Source: Peptococcaceae bacterium UBA4068
GTDB taxonomy: Bacteria; Bacillota; Dehalobacteriia; UBA4068
Direction of reading: 5' to 3'
DNA: 64,000 bases
Assembly (NCBI GenBank): GCA_002382665.1
Contig: DFZA01000009.1
Coordinates: 403,602 to 467,601 of the forward strand
A program made the translations under genes and the position numbers. The notes below the pieces were generated by a model, which saw only the letters and a program-made list of their open reading frames with translations, searched no databases and was not told the origin of the DNA. The number at the start of each line of letters is the position of its first letter. The first letter of the stretch is position 1. Below are positions 2,497 through 54,104 of this stretch, piece after piece.

Positions 2497-3768
2497 TCAG
2501 CTAATATTTAATTCATCTTCTTCAATTTCGGCCAAATCACCGCCCAGCAGTTCCACGCTGATATTTTCTTCAAGCTTTTCGACATTGCGCAGTTTACGGT
2601 TAATCGCTCTGGTACGAATACCAACCAGTTTGTCCAGATTCTGATTGGCTTGCTCCAAACGCTGTTGTGTTGCTTTTAATATCTCGTCAAATTTCTCAAA
2701 TTCTCCCTTAACCGCACCCAGTAACTGCCAGACCTCGGTGCTGCGTTTTTGAATAGCCAGCGTTTTAAATCCCATTTGCAAACTGTTAAGCAAGGCCGCC
2801 ATGGTACTGGGACCGGCAATGTTTACCCGGTATTTGCGCTGCAGCTCCTCAACCATGCCTCTGTTGATTACCTCGGCGTAAAGCCCTTCAAAGGGCAGGA
2901 ACATTACCGCAAAATCGGTGGTGTAAGGCGGGCCGATATATTTATCATGGATATCCTTGGCTTCGCTGCGAATAACTGTCAGCAAGCGGGCAACGGCTTC
3001 ATTGACTGCCTCTTGGGAGCCGCTCTCATAAGCATCCTGCAGCGCACTGTATGAATCACCGGGGAATTTGGCGTCGATCGGCAAATAAATATGCCCGCTA
3101 TCCTCCGCGGGCAGCCGGATGGCAAATTCAACCCTATTGGCGCTACCTGGGATCACTGCAACGTTAACATCATACTGCTCCGGCGTTAATATTTCTTCCA
3201 AAATAGCTTTAAGCTGCATCTCTCCTAAAATACCGCGGGTTTTAACATTCTTCAGCACTTTTTTCAGATCACCGACGCCGATAGCCAATGTCTGCATTTC
3301 GCCAAGCCCTTTATAAACCTGCTCCAATCGTTCGTTAACCAACTGAAACGATTGAGTCATCTTTTCTTCCAGGGTTTTTTGCAGTTTTTCATCAACTGTA
3401 GCCCGCATATCCTCCAGACGGCGATTGCTGTCTTCGCGGATATTGGCCAAATTAGTCTCCATGGTAGCACGGATATTATCGAGCTTTTGCTCATTGGTCA
3501 CTTCAAAAGTTTTAAAACGGTTTTCCAAATTAAGAAAATTATCCCGTTGAGTTCCGCTGATGATCTCACTGATATTGCGCATTGAGCTTTGCAGGTTATC
3601 GGTAACATCACTATGCAGACGCTCTTCGATACGCTGCAAATCCTTTTGTAGCTGCTCTATTTGCTGAGAACCGGTTTTTTCTTGGTTGCGGCGATTAATC
3701 AGAATAATAATTAACGTTATCAAACAAATGATAACCATTATTTGCAATAACAAAGAAATCAGATCCAT
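2497..3768 (-). CDS. rmuC: DNA recombination protein RmuC
   Basis: 423 aa with an N-terminal TM helix, a long coiled-coil region and a C-terminal RmuC nuclease-like domain. Confidence 0.7.
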   Translation of the reverse strand: MDLISLLLQIMVIICLITLIIILINRRNQEKTGSQQIEQLQKDLQRIEERLHSDVTDNLQSSMRNISEIISGTQRDNFLNLENRFKTFEVTNEQKLDNIRATMETNLANIREDSNRRLEDMRATVDEKLQKTLEEKMTQSFQLVNERLEQVYKGLGEMQTLAIGVGDLKKVLKNVKTRGILGEMQLKAILEEILTPEQYDVNVAVIPGSANRVEFAIRLPAEDSGHIYLPIDAKFPGDSYSALQDAYESGSQEAVNEAVARLLTVIRSEAKDIHDKYIGPPYTTDFAVMFLPFEGLYAEVINRGMVEELQRKYRVNIAGPSTMAALLNSLQMGFKTLAIQKRSTEVWQLLGAVKGEFEKFDEILKATQQRLEQANQNLDKLVGIRTRAINRKLRNVEKLEENISVELLGGDLAEIEEDELNIS

Positions 3769-15997: not shown

Positions 15998-16071
15998 GGC
16001 GCCATAGCCAAGTGGTAAGGCAGAGGACTGCAAATCCTTTACCCCCAGTTCAAATCTGGGTGGCGCCTCCA
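15998..16071 (+). tRNA. tRNA-Cys (GCA)
   Basis: GGCGCCA...TGGCGCCTCCA with a 7-bp acceptor stem, GCA anticodon in the loop CTGCAAA, a GTTCAAATC T-arm and an encoded CCA. Confidence 0.85.
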
Positions 16072-16074
16072 AAT

Positions 16075-16161
16075 GCCGGAGTGGCGGAACTGGCAGACGC
16101 ACAGGACTTAAAATCCTGCGGTAGCAATACCGTACCGGTTCGACCCCGGTCTCCGGCACCA
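16075..16161 (+). tRNA. tRNA-Leu (TAA)
   Basis: 87 nt, GCCGGAG...CTCCGGCACCA, anticodon loop CTTAAAA, long variable arm, GGTTCGACCCC T-arm. Confidence 0.85.
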
Positions 16162-27424: not shown

Positions 27425-27622
27425 TTATTTATCGGCTTCCTCGACAACCTGTTCTACAGTGACCAGATGAGCAATACTGCGCACCTTACCCATAATATCG
27501 GGAGTGTCTTCCTGGATTACCGAGGAATGCATCTTCTTTAAGCCAAGCGCAACTGCCGTGGCTCTTTGCTTTTTATTGTAACCAATGGGGCTTTTTGTGA
27601 GAGTTATTTTGATTTTTGCCAT
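27425..27622 (-). CDS. rpmD: 50S ribosomal protein L30
   Basis: Start refined to the ATG at 27622 ([14 protein letters not shown]). GGGGGAG RBS 7 nt upstream. Confidence 0.88.
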
Positions 27623-36212: not shown

Positions 36213-36360
36213 TTTTTAACCTCCTCTTCGCCCGTATCATGACGGACATTTCTCAGCGGAAAAACCCTCGCGGCGCATCCGCAAAGCAACCTCCCGCCTC
36301 ATAGCATTAAAGTTTGTTTTGTCGGGCGGGCGTTAAACCCGCCCGACAATTAAAATTAAT

Positions 36361-40683: not shown

Positions 40684-40711
40684 TTGACAACATACTTAAG
40701 TTAAATATAAA
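40684..40711 (+). promoter_or_regulatory. Sigma-A type promoter for csoR-copA (TTGACA-16-TATAAA), followed by a C-rich 5' UTR
   Basis: ttgacaacatacttaagttaaatataaa. Confidence 0.4.
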
Positions 40712-40754
40712 ATATAAACACCCCCCCTCCCCGGTGCCCCGGTAAAGAGAAAGG

Positions 40755-41027
40755 ATGTTTTTTATGAAAGCAAATCCAGATGAAATATTGCTATTACTAA
40801 AAACAGCAAAAGGCCAAATTGACGGCATTATAAAAATGGTCGAAGACGATCGATATTGCATAGATATTTCCCATCAGGTGATGGCTGCTGAAGCAGTACT
40901 GCAAAAAGCCAATCGTGAAATATTAACCGCCCATCTCAAGCATTGCGTCAAAAATGCAACCGATCCGGACGATAAAGAAAAAAAGGTTGATGAATTAGTT
41001 GCCTTATTAAGTAAAATACTTAATTAA
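40755..41027 (+). CDS. csoR: Copper-sensing repressor CsoR family (DUF156)
   Basis: 90 aa, ...RYCIDISHQVMAAEAVL...HLKHC with the Cys/His/Cys Cu(I) ligand pattern. Confidence 0.8.
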   Translation: MFFMKANPDEILLLLKTAKGQIDGIIKMVEDDRYCIDISHQVMAAEAVLQKANREILTAHLKHCVKNATDPDDKEKKVDELVALLSKILN

Positions 41028-41101: not shown

Positions 41102-43600
41102 ATGATCCAGAAATTCGCCGTCACAGGTATGACCTGCGCTTCCTGTTCAAGCCATGTTGAAAAAAGCGTCCGTAGCCTTTCCGGCACGGAAAATGTGACC
41201 GTCAATCTCTTAACAAACAGCATGACGGTCGAATATAACGATGCTGTTTTAAGCAATAGCGATATAATCAGCGCCGTTGCCAAAGCCGGTTATGACGCAA
41301 GTCTGCCAGAAAACACCCGTATAAAAGCGCCTGCGTCAGAAGAAAAAAAAGTTGATATTAACAGTGAACAGCTAAAAAACATGCAACTACGCTTGATAGT
41401 ATCTATAATTTTTCTGATTCCATTGATGTATATATCGATGGGACAGATGGCTAATCTTCCTCTGCCTGCTTTTTTGAGCAGTATGGAAAACGCCATAGCT
41501 TTTGCGCTGACGCAATTTCTTTTATGTCTGCCGATCTTATATGTTAACAGAAGTTTCTACACCAGAGGCTTCAAGTCTCTGTTCCACGGCGCTCCCAATA
41601 TGGACTCCCTGATTGCTATTGCTTCCACCGCCGCTGTTGTCTACGGCGTTTATGCCATATATAGGATAGGATACGGACTGGCAATCGGCGATATGCAGTT
41701 AGTTGAATCATACCGTATGAACCTATATTTTGACGCCGCCGCCATGATTCTGACACTGATCACCGTTGGCAAATATCTGGAAACAAAATCAAAAGGAAAA
41801 ACCGGTGAGGCAATTGCCCAGCTGATTAATCTGGCGCCTCAAACTGCTACAGTTGAACGTAACGGCAATTTACTGGAGGTTCCTATCGATCAGGTCATGG
41901 CGGGAGAAACGGTTTATGTAAAACCCGGCGCTGCCATCCCTGTGGACGGTACTATTTTGTCAGGCAACACCAATGTTGACGAATCAGCTATCACCGGCGA
42001 AAGCATACCGGTCTATAAAAGTATTGACGATACGGTAATCGCCGCTACCATCAATAAGACCGGTTTTATTAAAATCAAAGCTACCCGAGTTGGCGATGAT
42101 ACCACTTTTGCGCAAATCATTCGCCTGGTTGAGGAAGCCGGAGCCAGCAAAGCGCCGATTGCCCGGCTGGCGGATAAAATCTCCGGCGTTTTTGTGCCGA
42201 TAGTAATTATTATCGCCGTAATTACTATCATCGTATGGTTGTTAACCGGCGCTTCGTTTGAGTTCGCTTTTTCTTGCGGCATCAGCGTGCTGGTCATTTC
42301 CTGCCCTTGCGCGCTAGGGCTTGCCACACCGGTGGCGATCATGGTAGGTACCGGCAAAGGGGCGCAGTCAGGCATCTTAATTAAATCCGGTGAAGCGCTG
42401 GAGACAGCGCACCGCATAAACAGTATTGTATTAGACAAAACCGGTACTATCACCGAGGGCAAGCCGGTTGTAACCGATATTAAAGCCTATCAAAATACTT
42501 CCGAGCAATTACTACAAATTGCCGCCGCACTTGAAGCGGGCAGTGAACATCCGTTAGCCGCGGCTATTATTGAATATGCCAATCAAAAAGGCTGCCGTAT
42601 AACGGCAGCGCAGAATATCGAAGCTATTACCGGGCAGGGAATCAAAGGTGAAATCGACGGCAAAATATATATTGCGGGCAATCAGCGCCTACTGGCCGAA
42701 AACGGTATTAAAACAGATATTGCTATTAATGACATTAATGATTATGCCCAAAACGGTAAGACGCCGTTGCTCTTTGCCGACGGTCAACAGCTTATCGGCA
42801 TTATTGCCGTAGCCGATACCGCCAAACCTACCAGCAAGGAAGCTGTTGAGCGTTTTAAAAAGCTGGGTATCGAAGTCATCATGCTGACCGGCGATAATTA
42901 CAATACGGCGCAGGCTATCCAAAGACAGCTCGGTATCGATACCGTAATCGCCGAGGTTCTGCCTGCCGATAAAGAAAAAGAAATAACTAAGCTGCAAAGC
43001 GCGGGTAAGACTGTGGCTATGGTCGGCGACGGTATCAATGATGCACCGGCTTTGGTAAAAGCCGATGTCGGTCTGGCTATCGGCGCAGGAACAGATGTTG
43101 CCATCGAAAGCGCCGATATCGTGCTGATGAAAAACAATCTATTGGACGCTGTGACTGCCATTCGGCTCAGTAAAGCAGTCATACGCAATATCCGTCAGAA
43201 CTTATTTTGGGCCTTTTTCTATAATATTCTCGGCATACCTATCGCCGCCGGTGTGTTTTACAATCTGCTGGGTCTAAAACTAAACCCGATGATCGGCGCT
43301 GCCGCCATGAGTTTTAGCAGTGTTTTCGTAGTCACAAACGCTTTAAGATTAAGAAGGTTTAAATCAGAATCCACAAGAAAGGAGTCCGAAAATATGCAGA
43401 TTACCATGAAAATCGAAGGCATGAGCTGCATGCATTGCCAAAAACGCGTCAGCGACGTCTTAAACGCCGTACCCGGTATAAAAGCGGAAGTGGATTTAGC
43501 AAATAATGCCGCCTATATTACCTCAAATACTGCTATTGATATAAACGAGTTGAAAAAAGTTATCGAAGACGCCGGATATCAAGTTACCGAGGTGGAATAG
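41102..43600 (+). CDS. copA: Copper-translocating P-type ATPase with N- and C-terminal HMA domains
   Basis: GMTCASCSSHVE (HMA), CPC motif (SCPCALGLATP), DKTGT, GDGINDAP, and a C-terminal second HMA (GMSCMHCQKRV). Confidence 0.92.
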   Translation: MIQKFAVTGMTCASCSSHVEKSVRSLSGTENVTVNLLTNSMTVEYNDAVLSNSDIISAVAKAGYDASLPENTRIKAPASEEKKVDINSEQLKNMQLRLIVSIIFLIPLMYISMGQMANLPLPAFLSSMENAIAFALTQFLLCLPILYVNRSFYTRGFKSLFHGAPNMDSLIAIASTAAVVYGVYAIYRIGYGLAIGDMQLVESYRMNLYFDAAAMILTLITVGKYLETKSKGKTGEAIAQLINLAPQTATVERNGNLLEVPIDQVMAGETVYVKPGAAIPVDGTILSGNTNVDESAITGESIPVYKSIDDTVIAATINKTGFIKIKATRVGDDTTFAQIIRLVEEAGASKAPIARLADKISGVFVPIVIIIAVITIIVWLLTGASFEFAFSCGISVLVISCPCALGLATPVAIMVGTGKGAQSGILIKSGEALETAHRINSIVLDKTGTITEGKPVVTDIKAYQNTSEQLLQIAAALEAGSEHPLAAAIIEYANQKGCRITAAQNIEAITGQGIKGEIDGKIYIAGNQRLLAENGIKTDIAINDINDYAQNGKTPLLFADGQQLIGIIAVADTAKPTSKEAVERFKKLGIEVIMLTGDNYNTAQAIQRQLGIDTVIAEVLPADKEKEITKLQSAGKTVAMVGDGINDAPALVKADVGLAIGAGTDVAIESADIVLMKNNLLDAVTAIRLSKAVIRNIRQNLFWAFFYNILGIPIAAGVFYNLLGLKLNPMIGAAAMSFSSVFVVTNALRLRRFKSESTRKESENMQITMKIEGMSCMHCQKRVSDVLNAVPGIKAEVDLANNAAYITSNTAIDINELKKVIEDAGYQVTEVE

Positions 43601-50176: not shown

Positions 50177-51304
50177 TTAATCAACAAACGGCATATTAAA
50201 TAACGAGAAGGATTCAGCTGCATCAGCCGCAGCAGATAATCTAATATCCATTATTTGATTATCTTGACCGTCATATACCTTTAAATATCCGATTGTTTGG
50301 TCATAAGCAACCGGAGCGGTTAAATTCATTGGTAATTGCCAGCAAATATGTAATTCGTTTAATTTATCTTTAGCATATAAGAGATAGGCGTCGGTACTTA
50401 CTTGAATAGGCAAATACTTGACATTGCCGCCTCTTACAGGCAAAGAGGCTACGATTTCCCCCGCTGATGCCAAACGGCATAACTGATAATTATCGGCGCC
50501 GTAATTTAACAGCCCCATACTCTCGCCGTAACGGTCGGGACTGTGCAGAACCACGCTGATAAACTGCATATCCCCCGACTGCATTGACGCTATCAAACAG
50601 GAACCGGCCGCATCGGTCGTACCTGTTTTGATGCCGGTTACGGCATCGCACTGCCATAAAAGTTTATTGGTGCTTTTTAAGGTGCGTGTCGACTTGCCGC
50701 TGCCGATTTGTGCATATTTACTGGCTACTATTTCGGCGAAGTTATCGTTTTTCATTGCATACCTGGCAATATAAGCTAAATCCCTGGCGCTGATCTCGTG
50801 GCCGTCAAACGGCAGTCCGTTGGTATTATACAGTGTTGCCGAAGTAGCACCGAGCGTGGCTGCTTTGAGATTCAGCCAATGGACAAACAAATCCTCATCG
50901 CCTGCCACCGCTTCACCCAAAGCAAAACAGGCGTCATTGCCGGAACGAATCAATGCACCCTTAAGCAAATCATCTGTTGTCAGTATCTCTCCCGCCTGCA
51001 AATTAATACTTGATTCACCAACCTGGGCGGCTTTGGCGCTGATTTGGTGCTGCTCTGATAAATCCGCCATATCTAAAGCGGTAATCGCCGATATTATTTT
51101 GCTGGTACTGGCAGGGGGCAACGGAGTAGTAGCGTTTTTTTGATAAATAATTCTGCCGCTATTTGCTTCGATAAGTATTGCCGCCGTTGCCTGAGGATCA
51201 GGTACAGTCGCAGCCTGCGCTATAGATGAAAACGATATTAAGACAATAATCAGTACCAAAACGCTGCTACAAACCGATATTTTTCGATACAGTCGTGAAA
51301 ACAT
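50177..51304 (-). CDS. D-alanyl-D-alanine carboxypeptidase (DacB/DacF-like, sporulation-type)
   Basis: SxxK motif STSK, SGN motif, KTG motif, N-terminal signal peptide. Confidence 0.85.
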   Translation of the reverse strand: MFSRLYRKISVCSSVLVLIIVLISFSSIAQAATVPDPQATAAILIEANSGRIIYQKNATTPLPPASTSKIISAITALDMADLSEQHQISAKAAQVGESSINLQAGEILTTDDLLKGALIRSGNDACFALGEAVAGDEDLFVHWLNLKAATLGATSATLYNTNGLPFDGHEISARDLAYIARYAMKNDNFAEIVASKYAQIGSGKSTRTLKSTNKLLWQCDAVTGIKTGTTDAAGSCLIASMQSGDMQFISVVLHSPDRYGESMGLLNYGADNYQLCRLASAGEIVASLPVRGGNVKYLPIQVSTDAYLLYAKDKLNELHICWQLPMNLTAPVAYDQTIGYLKVYDGQDNQIMDIRLSAAADAAESFSLFNMPFVD

Positions 51305-51974
51305 ATCCTTGCTCCTGTGCTTTTTCGATTATATCCGGCAAGGCGGCCAAAGTCGACTCGGTCGGATGAGCTAAAATAATTGCTCCGCCATGAAGTTTAC
51401 CGACAACCCTGTTAACGATTGTATTGGCATCGGGTTTCTGCCAATCTATGGTATCAATGCTCCAGAGAATTACTTTATAACCGCAGTCTTTTGCTGCCCG
51501 CAATACATGTTCTTCCTTTTCGCCGGACGGTGGCGCATACAAGCGGGTAGTTACGCCGGTAGCTTTAGCTATCGCATCCTCGGTCTTGGTAATTTCCTCG
51601 ATGTTTTGCTCGTATGTATTGTTATTGGGACTACTGTGACTATAAGCGTGATTGCCTATTTCATGACCGGCTGCAACAATAGCTGCCGCTATATCCGGAT
51701 TTTTGTCAGCCCAGCGTCCTGTAAGGAAAAAAGTAGCCTTAACATGATATTCGTCCAATACCGCCAGCATATCAGGTATATATTCCTCTCCCCAGTCGAC
51801 ATTAATCGCCAAACTGACTTTATTTTCTGTGATATCTCCCTGATAATACGGTTCGGCCGACACGGCGGTTGTCTGTGGTAAGGCTAGCTTTGCCGTGACA
51901 ATTAAAACTGTCACCGCCAGCAAATATATAATAAAATACCTGCTGTTTTTTTTGCTCAGATAAAAGGTTTGCAT
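51267..51974 (-). CDS. Polysaccharide deacetylase (NodB domain; PdaB/PdaA-like)
   Basis: 235 aa, ...YHVKATFFLTGRWADKNPD...GHEIGNHAYSH. Confidence 0.8.
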   Translation of the reverse strand: MQTFYLSKKNSRYFIIYLLAVTVLIVTAKLALPQTTAVSAEPYYQGDITENKVSLAINVDWGEEYIPDMLAVLDEYHVKATFFLTGRWADKNPDIAAAIVAAGHEIGNHAYSHSSPNNNTYEQNIEEITKTEDAIAKATGVTTRLYAPPSGEKEEHVLRAAKDCGYKVILWSIDTIDWQKPDANTIVNRVVGKLHGGAIILAHPTESTLAALPDIIEKAQEQGYVFTTVSKNIGL

Positions 51975-52098
51975 CCGGCTAACCCCCTAATTGTTAATTT
52001 AAACCTTTTATATCAATATTCTATGGTAGTGGCAATTATGTAAATGATATTAATTAATATTATTTATGATGAAATTTTTAATTTTTTTTCAAATTATA

Positions 52099-52127
52099 TT
52101 GACAAGAGAATAATGTTCGGTTATACT
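52099..52127 (+). promoter_or_regulatory. Consensus sigma-A promoter (TTGACA-17-TATACT preceded by an AT-rich UP-like tract) with no ORF downstream
   Basis: ttgacaagagaataatgttcggttatact. Confidence 0.5.
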
Positions 52128-52133
52128 AATATC

Positions 52134-52247
52134 AACGGTTGTATTTCTTTAAATATAACGGCTGGTCACTATCCCCCCTTAAAGCACCCCCTTAAAAAAA
52201 AAGCACCCTCATGCAATCGCTCTGCAAGAGGGTGTTTTTTTTATTGA
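52134..52247 (+). ncRNA. Candidate small RNA (about 110 nt) with duplicated C-rich motifs (CCCCCCUUAAAG / CCCCCUUAAAA), ending in an intrinsic terminator
   Basis: The transcript is bounded by the promoter above and by the hairpin caccctc...gagggtg plus T8 at 52208-52247. That hairpin also serves the convergent cysteine desulfurase gene. Confidence 0.35.
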
Positions 52248-52262
52248 TATTGTCTGGTTGGA

Positions 52263-53432
52263 TTAATTGGGCGTATACGGGCTCATTTTGCGTAACAGGG
52301 CAACTTTTTCTTCCAATACATCAACGGTGTGGAGTATTTGTTGCTCAGTTACGCCCAGCCCGAGTGAAAATCTTAAAGAACTGTCAAGCCAGGGGTTTTG
52401 GATACCCATCGCTTGTAAGACATGAGAAGGGCTAAGTGATCCCGAAGAACAGGCCGAACCGGTAGAACAGCAAATGCCCGCAGAATCCAGATAGAGGAAT
52501 AAAGCTTCGCCTTCAATATAATTAAAGGCTAAATTGGCGTTATGGGGCAGACGCTGTTCAGGGTGCCCGTTTAAGCGGCATTGGTCAATACGGCTGAATA
52601 TCTGCGATACAAATAAATCACGCAGCCTTTTTTGCTCTTTCATTTCCTCACGCCAACCTTTGGCGGTAAGCTCGGCGGCTAAGCCAAAGCCAAAAATACC
52701 CGGCATATTTTCCGTGCCCGAACGCAGCTTCTTTTCCTGACCGCCGCCATAAGTCCTCCTGCCTAAACGGATGCCGTTACGTTTATATAACGCGCCTGCT
52801 CCTTTGGGGCCGTTGATTTTATGAGATGAACATGTCAGCATATCCACATCCAGTTGCTGAACGTCTACTTCGATCTTACCTACGCTTTGCACTGCATCCA
52901 CATGGAACAGCGCACCAGCTTCGTGGGCTATTGCCGCTAACTCCTTAATTGGATTGATCGTACCAACCTCATTATTGGCATGCATAATGCTGACTAAAAA
53001 AGTATCTTCCCTGATCGCCGCTTTGAGTGTCTCCGGCTGTACCATACCGTATTGATCAACATCAAGGATGGTAACATCATAACCCTCGCGCTTTAACTGC
53101 TCGCAGCTTTCCAGTATAGCATGGTGCTCTACCGCCGAAGTAATTAAGTGCTTTTTGCTTTTTTCTGACGATGCCCCGCCAAAAAGAGCAATATTATCGG
53201 CCTCCGTACCGCCGCTGGTGAAGAAGACATCATTAGTATCGACATTAATTAAAGATGCCACCTGCTCACGTGCTTTCTCCAGATAACCTTTGGCGTCTCT
53301 GCCGATAGCATGGGCGCTAGAGGGATTGCCGAAGTGATTACGCATATAATCGGCCATGGCGTCAATTACTTGGGGAAACATCGGCGTAGTCGCCGCATGA
53401 TCCAGATATATTCTTTCGGTCAACAAAATCAT
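52263..53432 (-). CDS. Cysteine desulfurase (NifS/IscS/YrvO-like, class V aminotransferase)
   Basis: 389 aa, DHAATTP..., PLP-Lys motif SSHKINGPKG, active-site Cys in CSTGSACSSGS. Confidence 0.88.
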   Translation of the reverse strand: MILLTERIYLDHAATTPMFPQVIDAMADYMRNHFGNPSSAHAIGRDAKGYLEKAREQVASLINVDTNDVFFTSGGTEADNIALFGGASSEKSKKHLITSAVEHHAILESCEQLKREGYDVTILDVDQYGMVQPETLKAAIREDTFLVSIMHANNEVGTINPIKELAAIAHEAGALFHVDAVQSVGKIEVDVQQLDVDMLTCSSHKINGPKGAGALYKRNGIRLGRRTYGGGQEKKLRSGTENMPGIFGFGLAAELTAKGWREEMKEQKRLRDLFVSQIFSRIDQCRLNGHPEQRLPHNANLAFNYIEGEALFLYLDSAGICCSTGSACSSGSLSPSHVLQAMGIQNPWLDSSLRFSLGLGVTEQQILHTVDVLEEKVALLRKMSPYTPN

Positions 53433-53447
53433 CTCCTGTACTATTAA

Positions 53448-53963
53448 TTAACGTGTTTCTTTATTTACCAAATCCGCCAGCGTATGTGAATCCAAGACCT
53501 CGGCAATCGCTTTTTGGATTTCTTCCCAAAGATAGCCGCTACCGCAATAATCTTTTTTACTGCAGGCGGTTGCTTCACTCTCGCTGCTGCAGTCCTTATT
53601 TCTGCAAGCGTTTGCTTCACCCTCGCTACTGCAATAATCTTTTTTTTTGCAGGAAGTTGTTTCATCTTCACTGGTGCAAACAGCTAAATTAAGCGGTCCT
53701 TCCAAAGCTCTGAAAATCTCCCCGACAACTATATGCTGCGGGTCTCTGGCTAATGAATATCCTCCCTGGGCTCCGCGGCTGCTGACAATAATCCCCGCTT
53801 TTTTCAGCGGCGCCATCAGCTGTTCAAGATAACCTTCGGAAATCTGTTGGCGAAGGGAAATCGCAGATAATGTCACGGGTTTACCTTGATAATTGCAGGC
53901 GATATCCAATACTGCCCTGAGACCGTACCTGCCCTTGGTAGATATATTCATTTTGCGCCTCAT
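53448..53963 (-). CDS. Rrf2 family transcriptional regulator (CymR/IscR-like) with an expanded Cys-rich tandem-repeat insertion
   Basis: N-terminal wHTH (GRYGLRAVLDIA...GGYSLAR), then CTSEDETTSCKKKDYCSSEGEANACRNKDCSSESEATACSKKDYCGSG. Gene pair arrangement resembles cymR-yrvO. Confidence 0.8.
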   Translation of the reverse strand: MRRKMNISTKGRYGLRAVLDIACNYQGKPVTLSAISLRQQISEGYLEQLMAPLKKAGIIVSSRGAQGGYSLARDPQHIVVGEIFRALEGPLNLAVCTSEDETTSCKKKDYCSSEGEANACRNKDCSSESEATACSKKDYCGSGYLWEEIQKAIAEVLDSHTLADLVNKETR

Positions 53964-54075
53964 TCCTTAGTTATTTAATAGGGAATAAATTACTGGGAAA
54001 AGTATAATTCTTTTAATTAATAATGTCAAGCTATAAAAGGATTTTTCCCTTATTTTTAAAATATTAAACAAAAAA

Positions 54076-54104
54076 GAACTGCCACTGGCAGCTCTTTAAT
54101 TACG
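54076..54104 (-). terminator. Putative terminator downstream of panC (minus sense)
   Basis: Minus sense agagctgccagtggcagttcttttttg. Confidence 0.4.

Follow-up and report, generated by a model that had tools for sequence, protein, structure and literature searches.

Much work in Bacillus, Staphylococcus, and Listeria has been devoted to small RNAs (sRNAs) that target Shine–Dalgarno sequences through C-rich segments. LhrC of Listeria, the Rsa sRNAs of S. aureus that carry UCCC motifs, and the CiaR-controlled csRNAs of streptococci each combine a stem-loop, an unpaired C-rich anti-Shine–Dalgarno segment, and a terminator, and all of these sRNAs occlude ribosome binding sites via redundant C-rich motifs. 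RoxS and RsaE are sRNAs of about 100–115 nucleotides (nt) that have their own sigma-A promoter and an intrinsic terminator, and they contain several C-rich regions, unpaired or located in loops, that pair with G-rich Shine–Dalgarno sequences. One copy of the duplicated C-rich motif of RoxS blocks ppnKB's ribosome binding site (PMC4409812). The subject of the present analysis is a candidate sRNA of this general kind in a 64-kb stretch of contig DFZA01000009.1 of Peptococcaceae bacterium UBA4068, an uncultured spore former. This whole stretch is referred to as the window, and coordinates are those of the window unless another locus is named. The candidate is predicted on the plus strand of a 288-nt intergenic region (51975–52262) between two minus-strand genes: a cysteine desulfurase gene (csd), which is convergent with the candidate, and a sporulation polysaccharide deacetylase gene (pda), which is divergent from it.

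On sequence and comparative grounds, the chances appear to be about even that positions 52134–52242 encode a genuine, independently transcribed, and clade-restricted sRNA that would pair with Shine–Dalgarno sites of the GGGGG type, and that is similar to RoxS and RsaE without being a member of their family. The clade that hosts it is a narrow group of uncultured Peptococcaceae-like Bacillota from methanogenic enrichment metagenomes. Transcription of the RNA, its 5′ and 3′ ends, its action in trans on Shine–Dalgarno sites, and the identity of its targets are what we infer from the features described below.

Comparison With Described RNA Families

The candidate is similar to RoxS and RsaE in its length, in its sigma-A-type promoter and intrinsic terminator, and in its C-rich regions, for which pairing with G-rich Shine–Dalgarno sequences is predicted. 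A duplicated 10-nt C-rich motif is also common to both, with the sequence CCCCUUUGUU in RoxS and CCCCCUUAAA in the candidate (PMC4409812). The initial annotation had likened the locus to RsaE and RoxS; the architecture (5′ hairpin, single-stranded C-rich seed, and terminator) and the motif duplication do run parallel, whereas membership of the family could not be upheld. The whole window was scanned with cmscan against Rfam 15 at gathering thresholds, and the interval 51900–52350 was scanned at E ≤ 10 with permissive filters. Neither scan assigned the candidate to an Rfam family, RsaE (RF01820) included. Weak matches to PyrR (27.5 bits), SurA (17.7 bits), and rli61 were rejected as driven by the terminator, and those to PyrR and SurA are far below the gathering scores. 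Further differences concern the arrangement of the motifs, in that the candidate has two adjacent single-stranded motifs, whereas RoxS and RsaE have 3–4 C-rich regions distributed over loops. The sequence, the fold, and the genomic context also differ, and the phylogenetic range of the candidate is far narrower than that of RoxS and RsaE, which is broad across Bacillales. RoxS and RsaE are under redox-responsive control by ResD and Rex, of which the candidate gives no evidence; inspection of its promoter by eye revealed nothing resembling a Rex box.

CsfG, a non-coding RNA of endospore formers with conserved C/U-rich stretches in loops or between helices (PMC3574147), resembles the candidate, which adjoins sporulation cell-wall genes. 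CsfG is a sporulation-specific sRNA and the antisense of the ylbH leader motif. It is located between ylbG and ylbH and is driven by sigma-F/sigma-G (PMC9147052). In contrast, the candidate has a sigma-A-type promoter in a csd/pda context, and it is restricted to one clade whereas CsfG is widely conserved. No match to the CsfG/ylbH motif, an Rfam family, was obtained on either strand.

With the LhrC, Rsa, and csRNA groups, the candidate shares a stem-loop, an unpaired C-rich segment, a terminator, and redundancy of the motif. It differs in the motif itself (CCCCC(C)UUAAA, where these RNAs use UCCC or CCUCC), in having no sequence or covariance-model similarity to these RNAs, and in being single-copy in the window. 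The candidate therefore falls outside every described family compared here; by analogy, it would work like an sRNA of the RoxS/RsaE or LhrC type. In common with trans-acting C-rich sRNAs as a class, it has its own promoter and terminator and no conserved open reading frame (ORF), and the multiple exposed C-rich regions that characterize RsaE and RoxS have their counterpart in the two CCCCC(C)UUAAA motifs, which are predicted to be largely unpaired.

Candidate Plus-Strand Promoter

The −35 hexamer TTGACA (52099–52104) and the −10 hexamer TATACT (52122–52127), separated by a 17-nt spacer, were located on the plus strand by a promoter scan, and are preceded by an A/T-rich tract (52060–52098); the sigma-A promoter and upstream tract of the initial annotation are thus present as described. 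The tract was identified from the sequence, resembles an UP element, as which it would act, and is partly conserved in relatives; it also keeps the promoter of the divergent pda gene at a distance from that of the candidate. The hexamers match the consensus at 11 of 12 positions. Sigma-70-type matches of at least this quality number 11 in the 64-kb window, against 1.8 expected under a first-order Markov model (a six-fold enrichment), and those that were examined precede genes, namely the Rrf2–csd operon (54029–54001) and the csoR–copA operon (40684). In a 288-nt sequence composed like this intergenic region, one or more such matches would be present by chance, both strands considered, with a probability of 0.027.

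All 12 hexamer positions are identical in the four lineages in which the element was found, and the 17-nt spacing is constant, including in the relative L084, where the spacer contains five substitutions and no insertion or deletion (indel). Five indels occur elsewhere in the intergenic region, none of which alters the spacing of the promoter. When the 6 + 17 + 6 pattern was slid along the intergenic alignment, only 2 of 284 registers were fully invariant and free of indels; one of these is the promoter, and the other corresponds to both arms of the 5′ hairpin.

Predicted Transcript and C-Rich Motifs

Judging from the position of the −10 hexamer, transcription would start at A52134 or A52135, giving a predicted plus-strand transcript of about 109 nt (52134–52242). 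The plus-strand RNA (113 nt) folds at −33.4 kcal/mol (z = −4.7 relative to shuffled sequences), leaving the C-rich stretch open. The folds contain a 5′ hairpin (52138–52159) with a 9-bp stem (GUUGUAUUU/AAAUAUAAC) and the loop CUUU. Seven of the eight modelled stem pairs do not vary, and the loop and the top of the stem do; in L084 the loop reads CUCCCCGA and holds an additional CCCC. The stem includes an invariant G·U pair that would be an A·C mismatch if read on the minus strand, and the plus strand is therefore mildly favored.

The segment of about 35 nt after the 5′ hairpin is predicted to be mostly unpaired in all four homologues and carries an exact 10-nt duplication of CCCCCTTAAA (52174–52183 and 52187–52196), of which the window has no further exact copy. 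The two near-identical, unpaired C-rich motifs that had been noticed initially are thus an exact repeat. Motif 1 (CCCCCCUUAAA, 52173–52183), which is complementary to UUUAAGGGGGG, is predicted to be unpaired in 4/4 homologues, and its C run, of five Cs in L084 and six elsewhere, is kept in all lineages even though a 12-nt insertion adjoins it. Motif 2 (CCCCCUUAAA inside CACCCCCUU, 52187–52196) is likewise predicted to be unpaired, and its CACCCCC is invariant in all lineages. In L084, the C runs of both motifs survive not only the 12-nt insertion just upstream but also a 1-nt deletion between the motifs. CACCCCCUU is one base off the anti-Shine–Dalgarno core at the 3′ end of 16S ribosomal RNA (CACCUCCUU), so that the RNA would compete with the ribosome preferentially at GGGGG sites. 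A second repeat, AAAGCACCC (52181–52189 and 52200–52208), is interleaved with the two copies of CCCCCTTAAA, and the terminator's left arm is formed by its second copy. Because of this interleaving, the seed region looks like a local, tandem partial duplication of the terminator flank.

In the mechanism proposed, a strong housekeeping-sigma promoter, together with its A/T-rich upstream tract, would start the RNA at about A52134, and the 5′ hairpin could shield the 5′ end. About 35 nt would stay single-stranded, exposing two copies of CCCCCUUAAA, and the RNA would end at the bidirectional terminator that it has in common with the convergent csd gene. The exposed C-rich motifs (CCCCC(C)UUAAA; seed CCCCCUUAA), which are complementary to (U)UUAAGGGGG, would pair with Shine–Dalgarno regions of the GGGGG type; this pairing would block binding of the 30S ribosomal subunit and possibly trigger decay of the messenger RNA (mRNA), as do the C-rich regions of RoxS and RsaE. 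Shine–Dalgarno sites of the GGGGG type, to which the motif is complementary, are frequent in this genome. Within the window, they precede no fewer than 12 genes, among them the neighboring pda gene, with the site AGGGGGU (AUUAGGGGGUUAGCCGGAUG), and a 65-amino-acid ORF at 27622, with the site GUUAAGGGGGAG.

The interval of about 110 nt that ends in a hairpin and T8 holds no conserved ORF, in agreement with the initial annotation, and no conserved small ORF was found on either strand of the intergenic region. On the plus strand, a TTG frame of 18 amino acids in the window has only 11 codons in L084 and lacks a Shine–Dalgarno site; on the minus strand, a GUG mini-ORF that follows AAGGGGGG lacks conservation. 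Neither was accepted as a small protein. A leader or riboswitch was dismissed because no plus-strand gene lies downstream, and a CsoR-type operator was dismissed because the C runs have no inverted G-run partner, unlike those of the csoR–copA operator at about 40710–40745.

The csoR–copA region itself is probably a copper-responsive operon with its operator. The interval 40684–41027 (plus strand) holds a consensus promoter, which can be read as TTGACA-16-TATAAA or as TTGACA-18-TAAAAT, then a C/G-rich inverted repeat (CACCCCCCCTCCCCGGTGCCCCGGTA), and downstream of these a 90-amino-acid ORF that was called CsoR/RcnR-like by eye from its N-terminal sequence. The 832-amino-acid ORF at 41102–43600 (plus strand) is presumably a P-type ATPase.

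Bidirectional Terminator

Inverted repeats and the folds of both strands define a bidirectional intrinsic terminator at 52194–52242. The stem (52204–52215/52223–52234) consists of 12 bp, is G+C-rich, and contains one A·A mismatch; the loop is AUCGCUC (52216–52222). The hairpin is flanked by A9 (52194–52202) and T8 (52235–52242), and the minus strand accordingly reads a hairpin followed by U9. These flanks, together with the csd stop codon at 52263, which is 20 nt away, indicate that the hairpin is a bidirectional terminator of csd shared with the candidate sRNA, and the orphan status originally given to it has to be withdrawn. A terminator is expected for csd with or without a plus-strand RNA and, taken by itself, therefore does not speak for an sRNA.

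In L084, the stem has two compensatory pairs, and the A·A mismatch is repaired to C–G. The loop block AATCGCTCT is invariant in 4/4 lineages, though three pairs of the surrounding stem have changed; such a pattern is not usual in an ordinary terminator and is compatible with a loop–loop contact of the convergent transcripts. Bidirectional intrinsic terminators between convergent genes are similar in having a G+C-rich hairpin with an A-tract and a T-tract, here directly after the csd stop codon. The present case differs from them in that one of the convergent units is a promoter-proximal non-coding unit of about 109 nt, and in that the loop is invariant across lineages. A type I toxin–antitoxin system was rejected, as the convergent gene encodes a cysteine desulfurase of 389 amino acids and the intergenic region has no conserved small ORF.

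Conservation and Distribution

The pda protein was found identical in several enrichment-culture metagenomes, and the csd–pda arrangement is kept at pda homologues of 97% (L087/L088), 89% (L086), and 86% (L084/L085) identity. Third codon positions of both flanking genes were used as the yardstick of neutral divergence. The candidate RNA is 0.98 identical in L087 and 0.91 identical in L086, where third-codon identities are 0.84–0.88 and 0.62–0.69, respectively; in L084 it is 0.67 identical (0.75 without the 12-nt insertion), and third-codon identity is 0.59–0.61. Identity over the 19 nt from the terminator tail to the csd stop codon is merely 0.25–0.45, a neutral-looking value, which indicates that the region is not simply slow-evolving. 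As read from these alignments, the comparative data support a functional plus-strand unit. Conservation in related genomes, to which the initial annotation had tied its proposal, is borne out in that the promoter and the motifs are well above the neutral level in four lineages; it is confined to these lineages, however, and the plus-strand U-tract is degraded in the farthest of them, L084.

The element was found in four closely related lineages only and is absent from the outgroups examined. In csd relatives at about 70% identity, csd is directly followed by a co-directional gene of the Ham1 family (5191–5820 of L215 and 2906–3535 of L216), and in the csd relative L001 a co-directional ORF of 200 amino acids (3018–3620) comes after csd. 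In pda relatives at about 60% identity (L089–L093), the cluster pda–dac–M16–dut has other upstream neighbors, namely genes for thioredoxin and for an amidase and a hypothetical gene adjacent to PNPase. Judging from gene order, the csd–pda junction that bears the candidate sRNA is a clade-specific junction.

Covariance model R1, which was built from the four lineages, gave no match in 80 cysteine desulfurase loci from diverse genomes. A pattern scan of metagenomes with CCCCCTTAAAN{0,2}CACCCCC returned at least 120 loci, those listed being chance matches, and has no bearing on wider distribution; its best model matches (L150, L151, and L198) were inspected and are unrelated. In a protein-based scan of genome contigs, the known close relatives were not among the matches listed. 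A blastn search against plasmids and phages gave no match, which indicates that the element is not mobile.

Flanking Genes and Other Features of the Window

The csd gene (52263–53432, minus strand), taken from the ORF list, encodes a cysteine desulfurase of the NifS/IscS type (NCBIfam TIGR03402; 509.8 bits, just below the cutoff). In the direction of csd transcription, its immediate upstream neighbor is a gene for an Rrf2 (CymR/IscR-like) regulator (53448–53963, minus strand). The promoter of the Rrf2–csd operon (TTGACA-17-TATACT; 54001–54029, minus strand) has the same hexamers and spacing as that of the candidate sRNA, and sits just past the panC terminator (54073–54097). The Rrf2 regulator contains a 29-residue Cys-rich repeat expansion (CKKKDYCSSEGEANACRNKDCSSESEATACSKKDYC, residues about 98–140) at the place where Rrf2 proteins ligate an Fe–S cluster; its orthologue in L084 is 138 amino acids long, lacks the expansion, and is about 92% identical elsewhere (127/138 aligned positions).

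The pda gene (51267–51974, minus strand) was identified from the ORF list, NCBIfam, and the Shine–Dalgarno listing, and encodes a YlxY/PdaB-like deacetylase. It is followed by genes for a D-Ala-D-Ala carboxypeptidase and then for an M16 peptidase. A putative pda promoter of the sporulation type (TCATTTA-15-CATAGAAT; 52018–52047, minus strand) was read, with low confidence, off the minus-strand sequence; by comparison with B. subtilis consensus sequences, it would be sigma-E/K-like. Its −10 block is conserved in all relatives in the intergenic alignment, and it is much nearer the pda start than the plus-strand hexamers are. If this promoter is real, pda has no need of those hexamers.

Elsewhere in the window, Rfam identifies an S10-Clostridia ribosomal protein leader (36228–36310, minus strand; 39.9 bits, above the gathering score) and two adjacent transfer RNA genes (15998–16158, plus strand; 67.1 and 54.6 bits), the second of which has a long variable arm.

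Alternative Explanations

A number of observations weigh against a functional trans-acting sRNA. The pda-proximal part of the intergenic region is likewise conserved (0.76–0.79), and 62% of the intergenic alignment columns are invariant, so that conservation is not unique to the RNA. With four close lineages only, covariation is thin and confined to the terminator, the 5′ stem being unvarying, and 37 of 500 shuffles scored as high for covariation as was observed. Termination of the csd mRNA fully accounts for the hairpin of the terminator and for the compensatory changes in it. The plus-strand tail of L084 and L085 reads CTTAATATC (CUUAAUAUC), a decayed U-tract, while the minus-strand U6 is intact, which suggests weak plus-strand termination there; the plus-strand terminator is strong in three lineages and weak in L084. 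Covariance model R1, searched against the csd relatives (~70%), the pda relatives (~60%), and the window, matched only its sources. Scans for RNA duplexes, run over the window and over 80 translation initiation regions, did not single out targets and yielded large-loop artefacts.

Much of this would be explained if the locus produced no functional RNA, the hairpin being the terminator of csd and the conservation reflecting DNA-level pda/csd sites or the slow divergence of a young junction. The promoter match would then have arisen incidentally in A/T-rich sequence, such as an operator or a minus-strand TGTCAA that resembles a Spo0A box. The terminator is indeed placed and oriented for csd, and its minus-strand U-tract is kept everywhere beside the decayed plus-strand tract of L084; the conserved pda-proximal region, the small set of close lineages with weak covariation, and the absence of the element from all outgroups examined point the same way. 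However, the hexamers have remained invariant at their spacing while the spacer changed, as in only 2/284 registers, and the probability of an 11/12 match in such an intergenic region is only 2.7%. A plausible pda promoter is nearer, and a conserved block serving pda would sit 90–230 nt upstream, which is unusual; moreover, the C-rich direct repeats are without the palindromic partner typical of operators, and the neutral-looking tail speaks against a slow-evolving region. We therefore regard the absence of a functional RNA as unlikely, although it carries appreciable weight. A real promoter might also serve an RNA that acts not in trans but on the convergent csd transcript, by affecting mRNA stability or by transcriptional interference. 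The 3′ overlap of about 48 nt and the perfectly complementary 7-nt loops could give a kissing complex or a duplex, and a leaky plus-strand terminator, as in L084, would produce read-through antisense RNA over the 3′ end of csd. Such an action in cis is consistent with the convergent arrangement and the terminator common to both units, with the invariance of AATCGCTCT through three stem changes, and with the degraded U-tracts of L084 and L085, which predict read-through. It is nevertheless improbable, given that very stable hairpin pairs seldom convert to intermolecular duplexes, that invariance of the 9-nt loop block is only mildly improbable (about 0.01–0.08 by our own estimate), and that it does not explain why the single-stranded C-rich motifs, both of them outside the overlap, are conserved.

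The promoter might also fire into a young transcript that is close to selective neutrality and regulates nothing, generated by the csd–pda rearrangement and local duplication of the terminator flank. Such a transcript would suit the position of the element at a clade-specific synteny junction, its confinement to a narrow clade, and the interleaved pairs of CCCCCTTAAA and AAAGCACCC, which make the seed region look like a local copy of the terminator's left flank. This has little probability in our view, because the RNA body is much more similar in L086 than third codon positions are, and because the motifs survive the indels of L084, both of which argue for purifying selection on the transcript. 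An independently transcribed sRNA acting in trans through its C-rich motifs is the reading that we prefer.

Origin and Biological Significance

A recent birth of a regulatory RNA at this junction may be envisaged, though as a doubtful proposition. In this scenario, a rearrangement would have brought the csd terminator beside the pda cluster, and a tandem partial duplication of its left flank (AAAGCACCC/CCCCCUUAAA) would have produced two exposed near-copies of the ribosomal anti-Shine–Dalgarno sequence (CACCCCCUU compared with CACCUCCUU). Capture of a consensus promoter would then have resulted in a clade-specific mimic of that sequence that would selectively silence mRNAs with GGGGG-type ribosome binding sites; the invariant terminator loop may in addition kiss the 3′ end of the csd mRNA.

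The predicted mechanism of the candidate sRNA is familiar, with nothing in it that is new or would surprise specialists. To our knowledge, C-rich sRNAs are hardly charted in anaerobes of the class Clostridia, and for the uncultured, syntrophic, Peptococcaceae-like organisms of methanogenic enrichments they are entirely uncharted. The analysis makes a precise prediction for strand-specific metatranscriptomes, namely a transcript of about 109 nt that extends from 52134 to 52242. If expressed, this RNA would be a new, lineage-specific member of the class of C-rich sRNAs that target Shine–Dalgarno sequences, and a very simply built one. It would also be a tidy example of the birth of a regulator, because the sequence still shows how it apparently arose, at a rearrangement junction, from the duplicated flank of a terminator.

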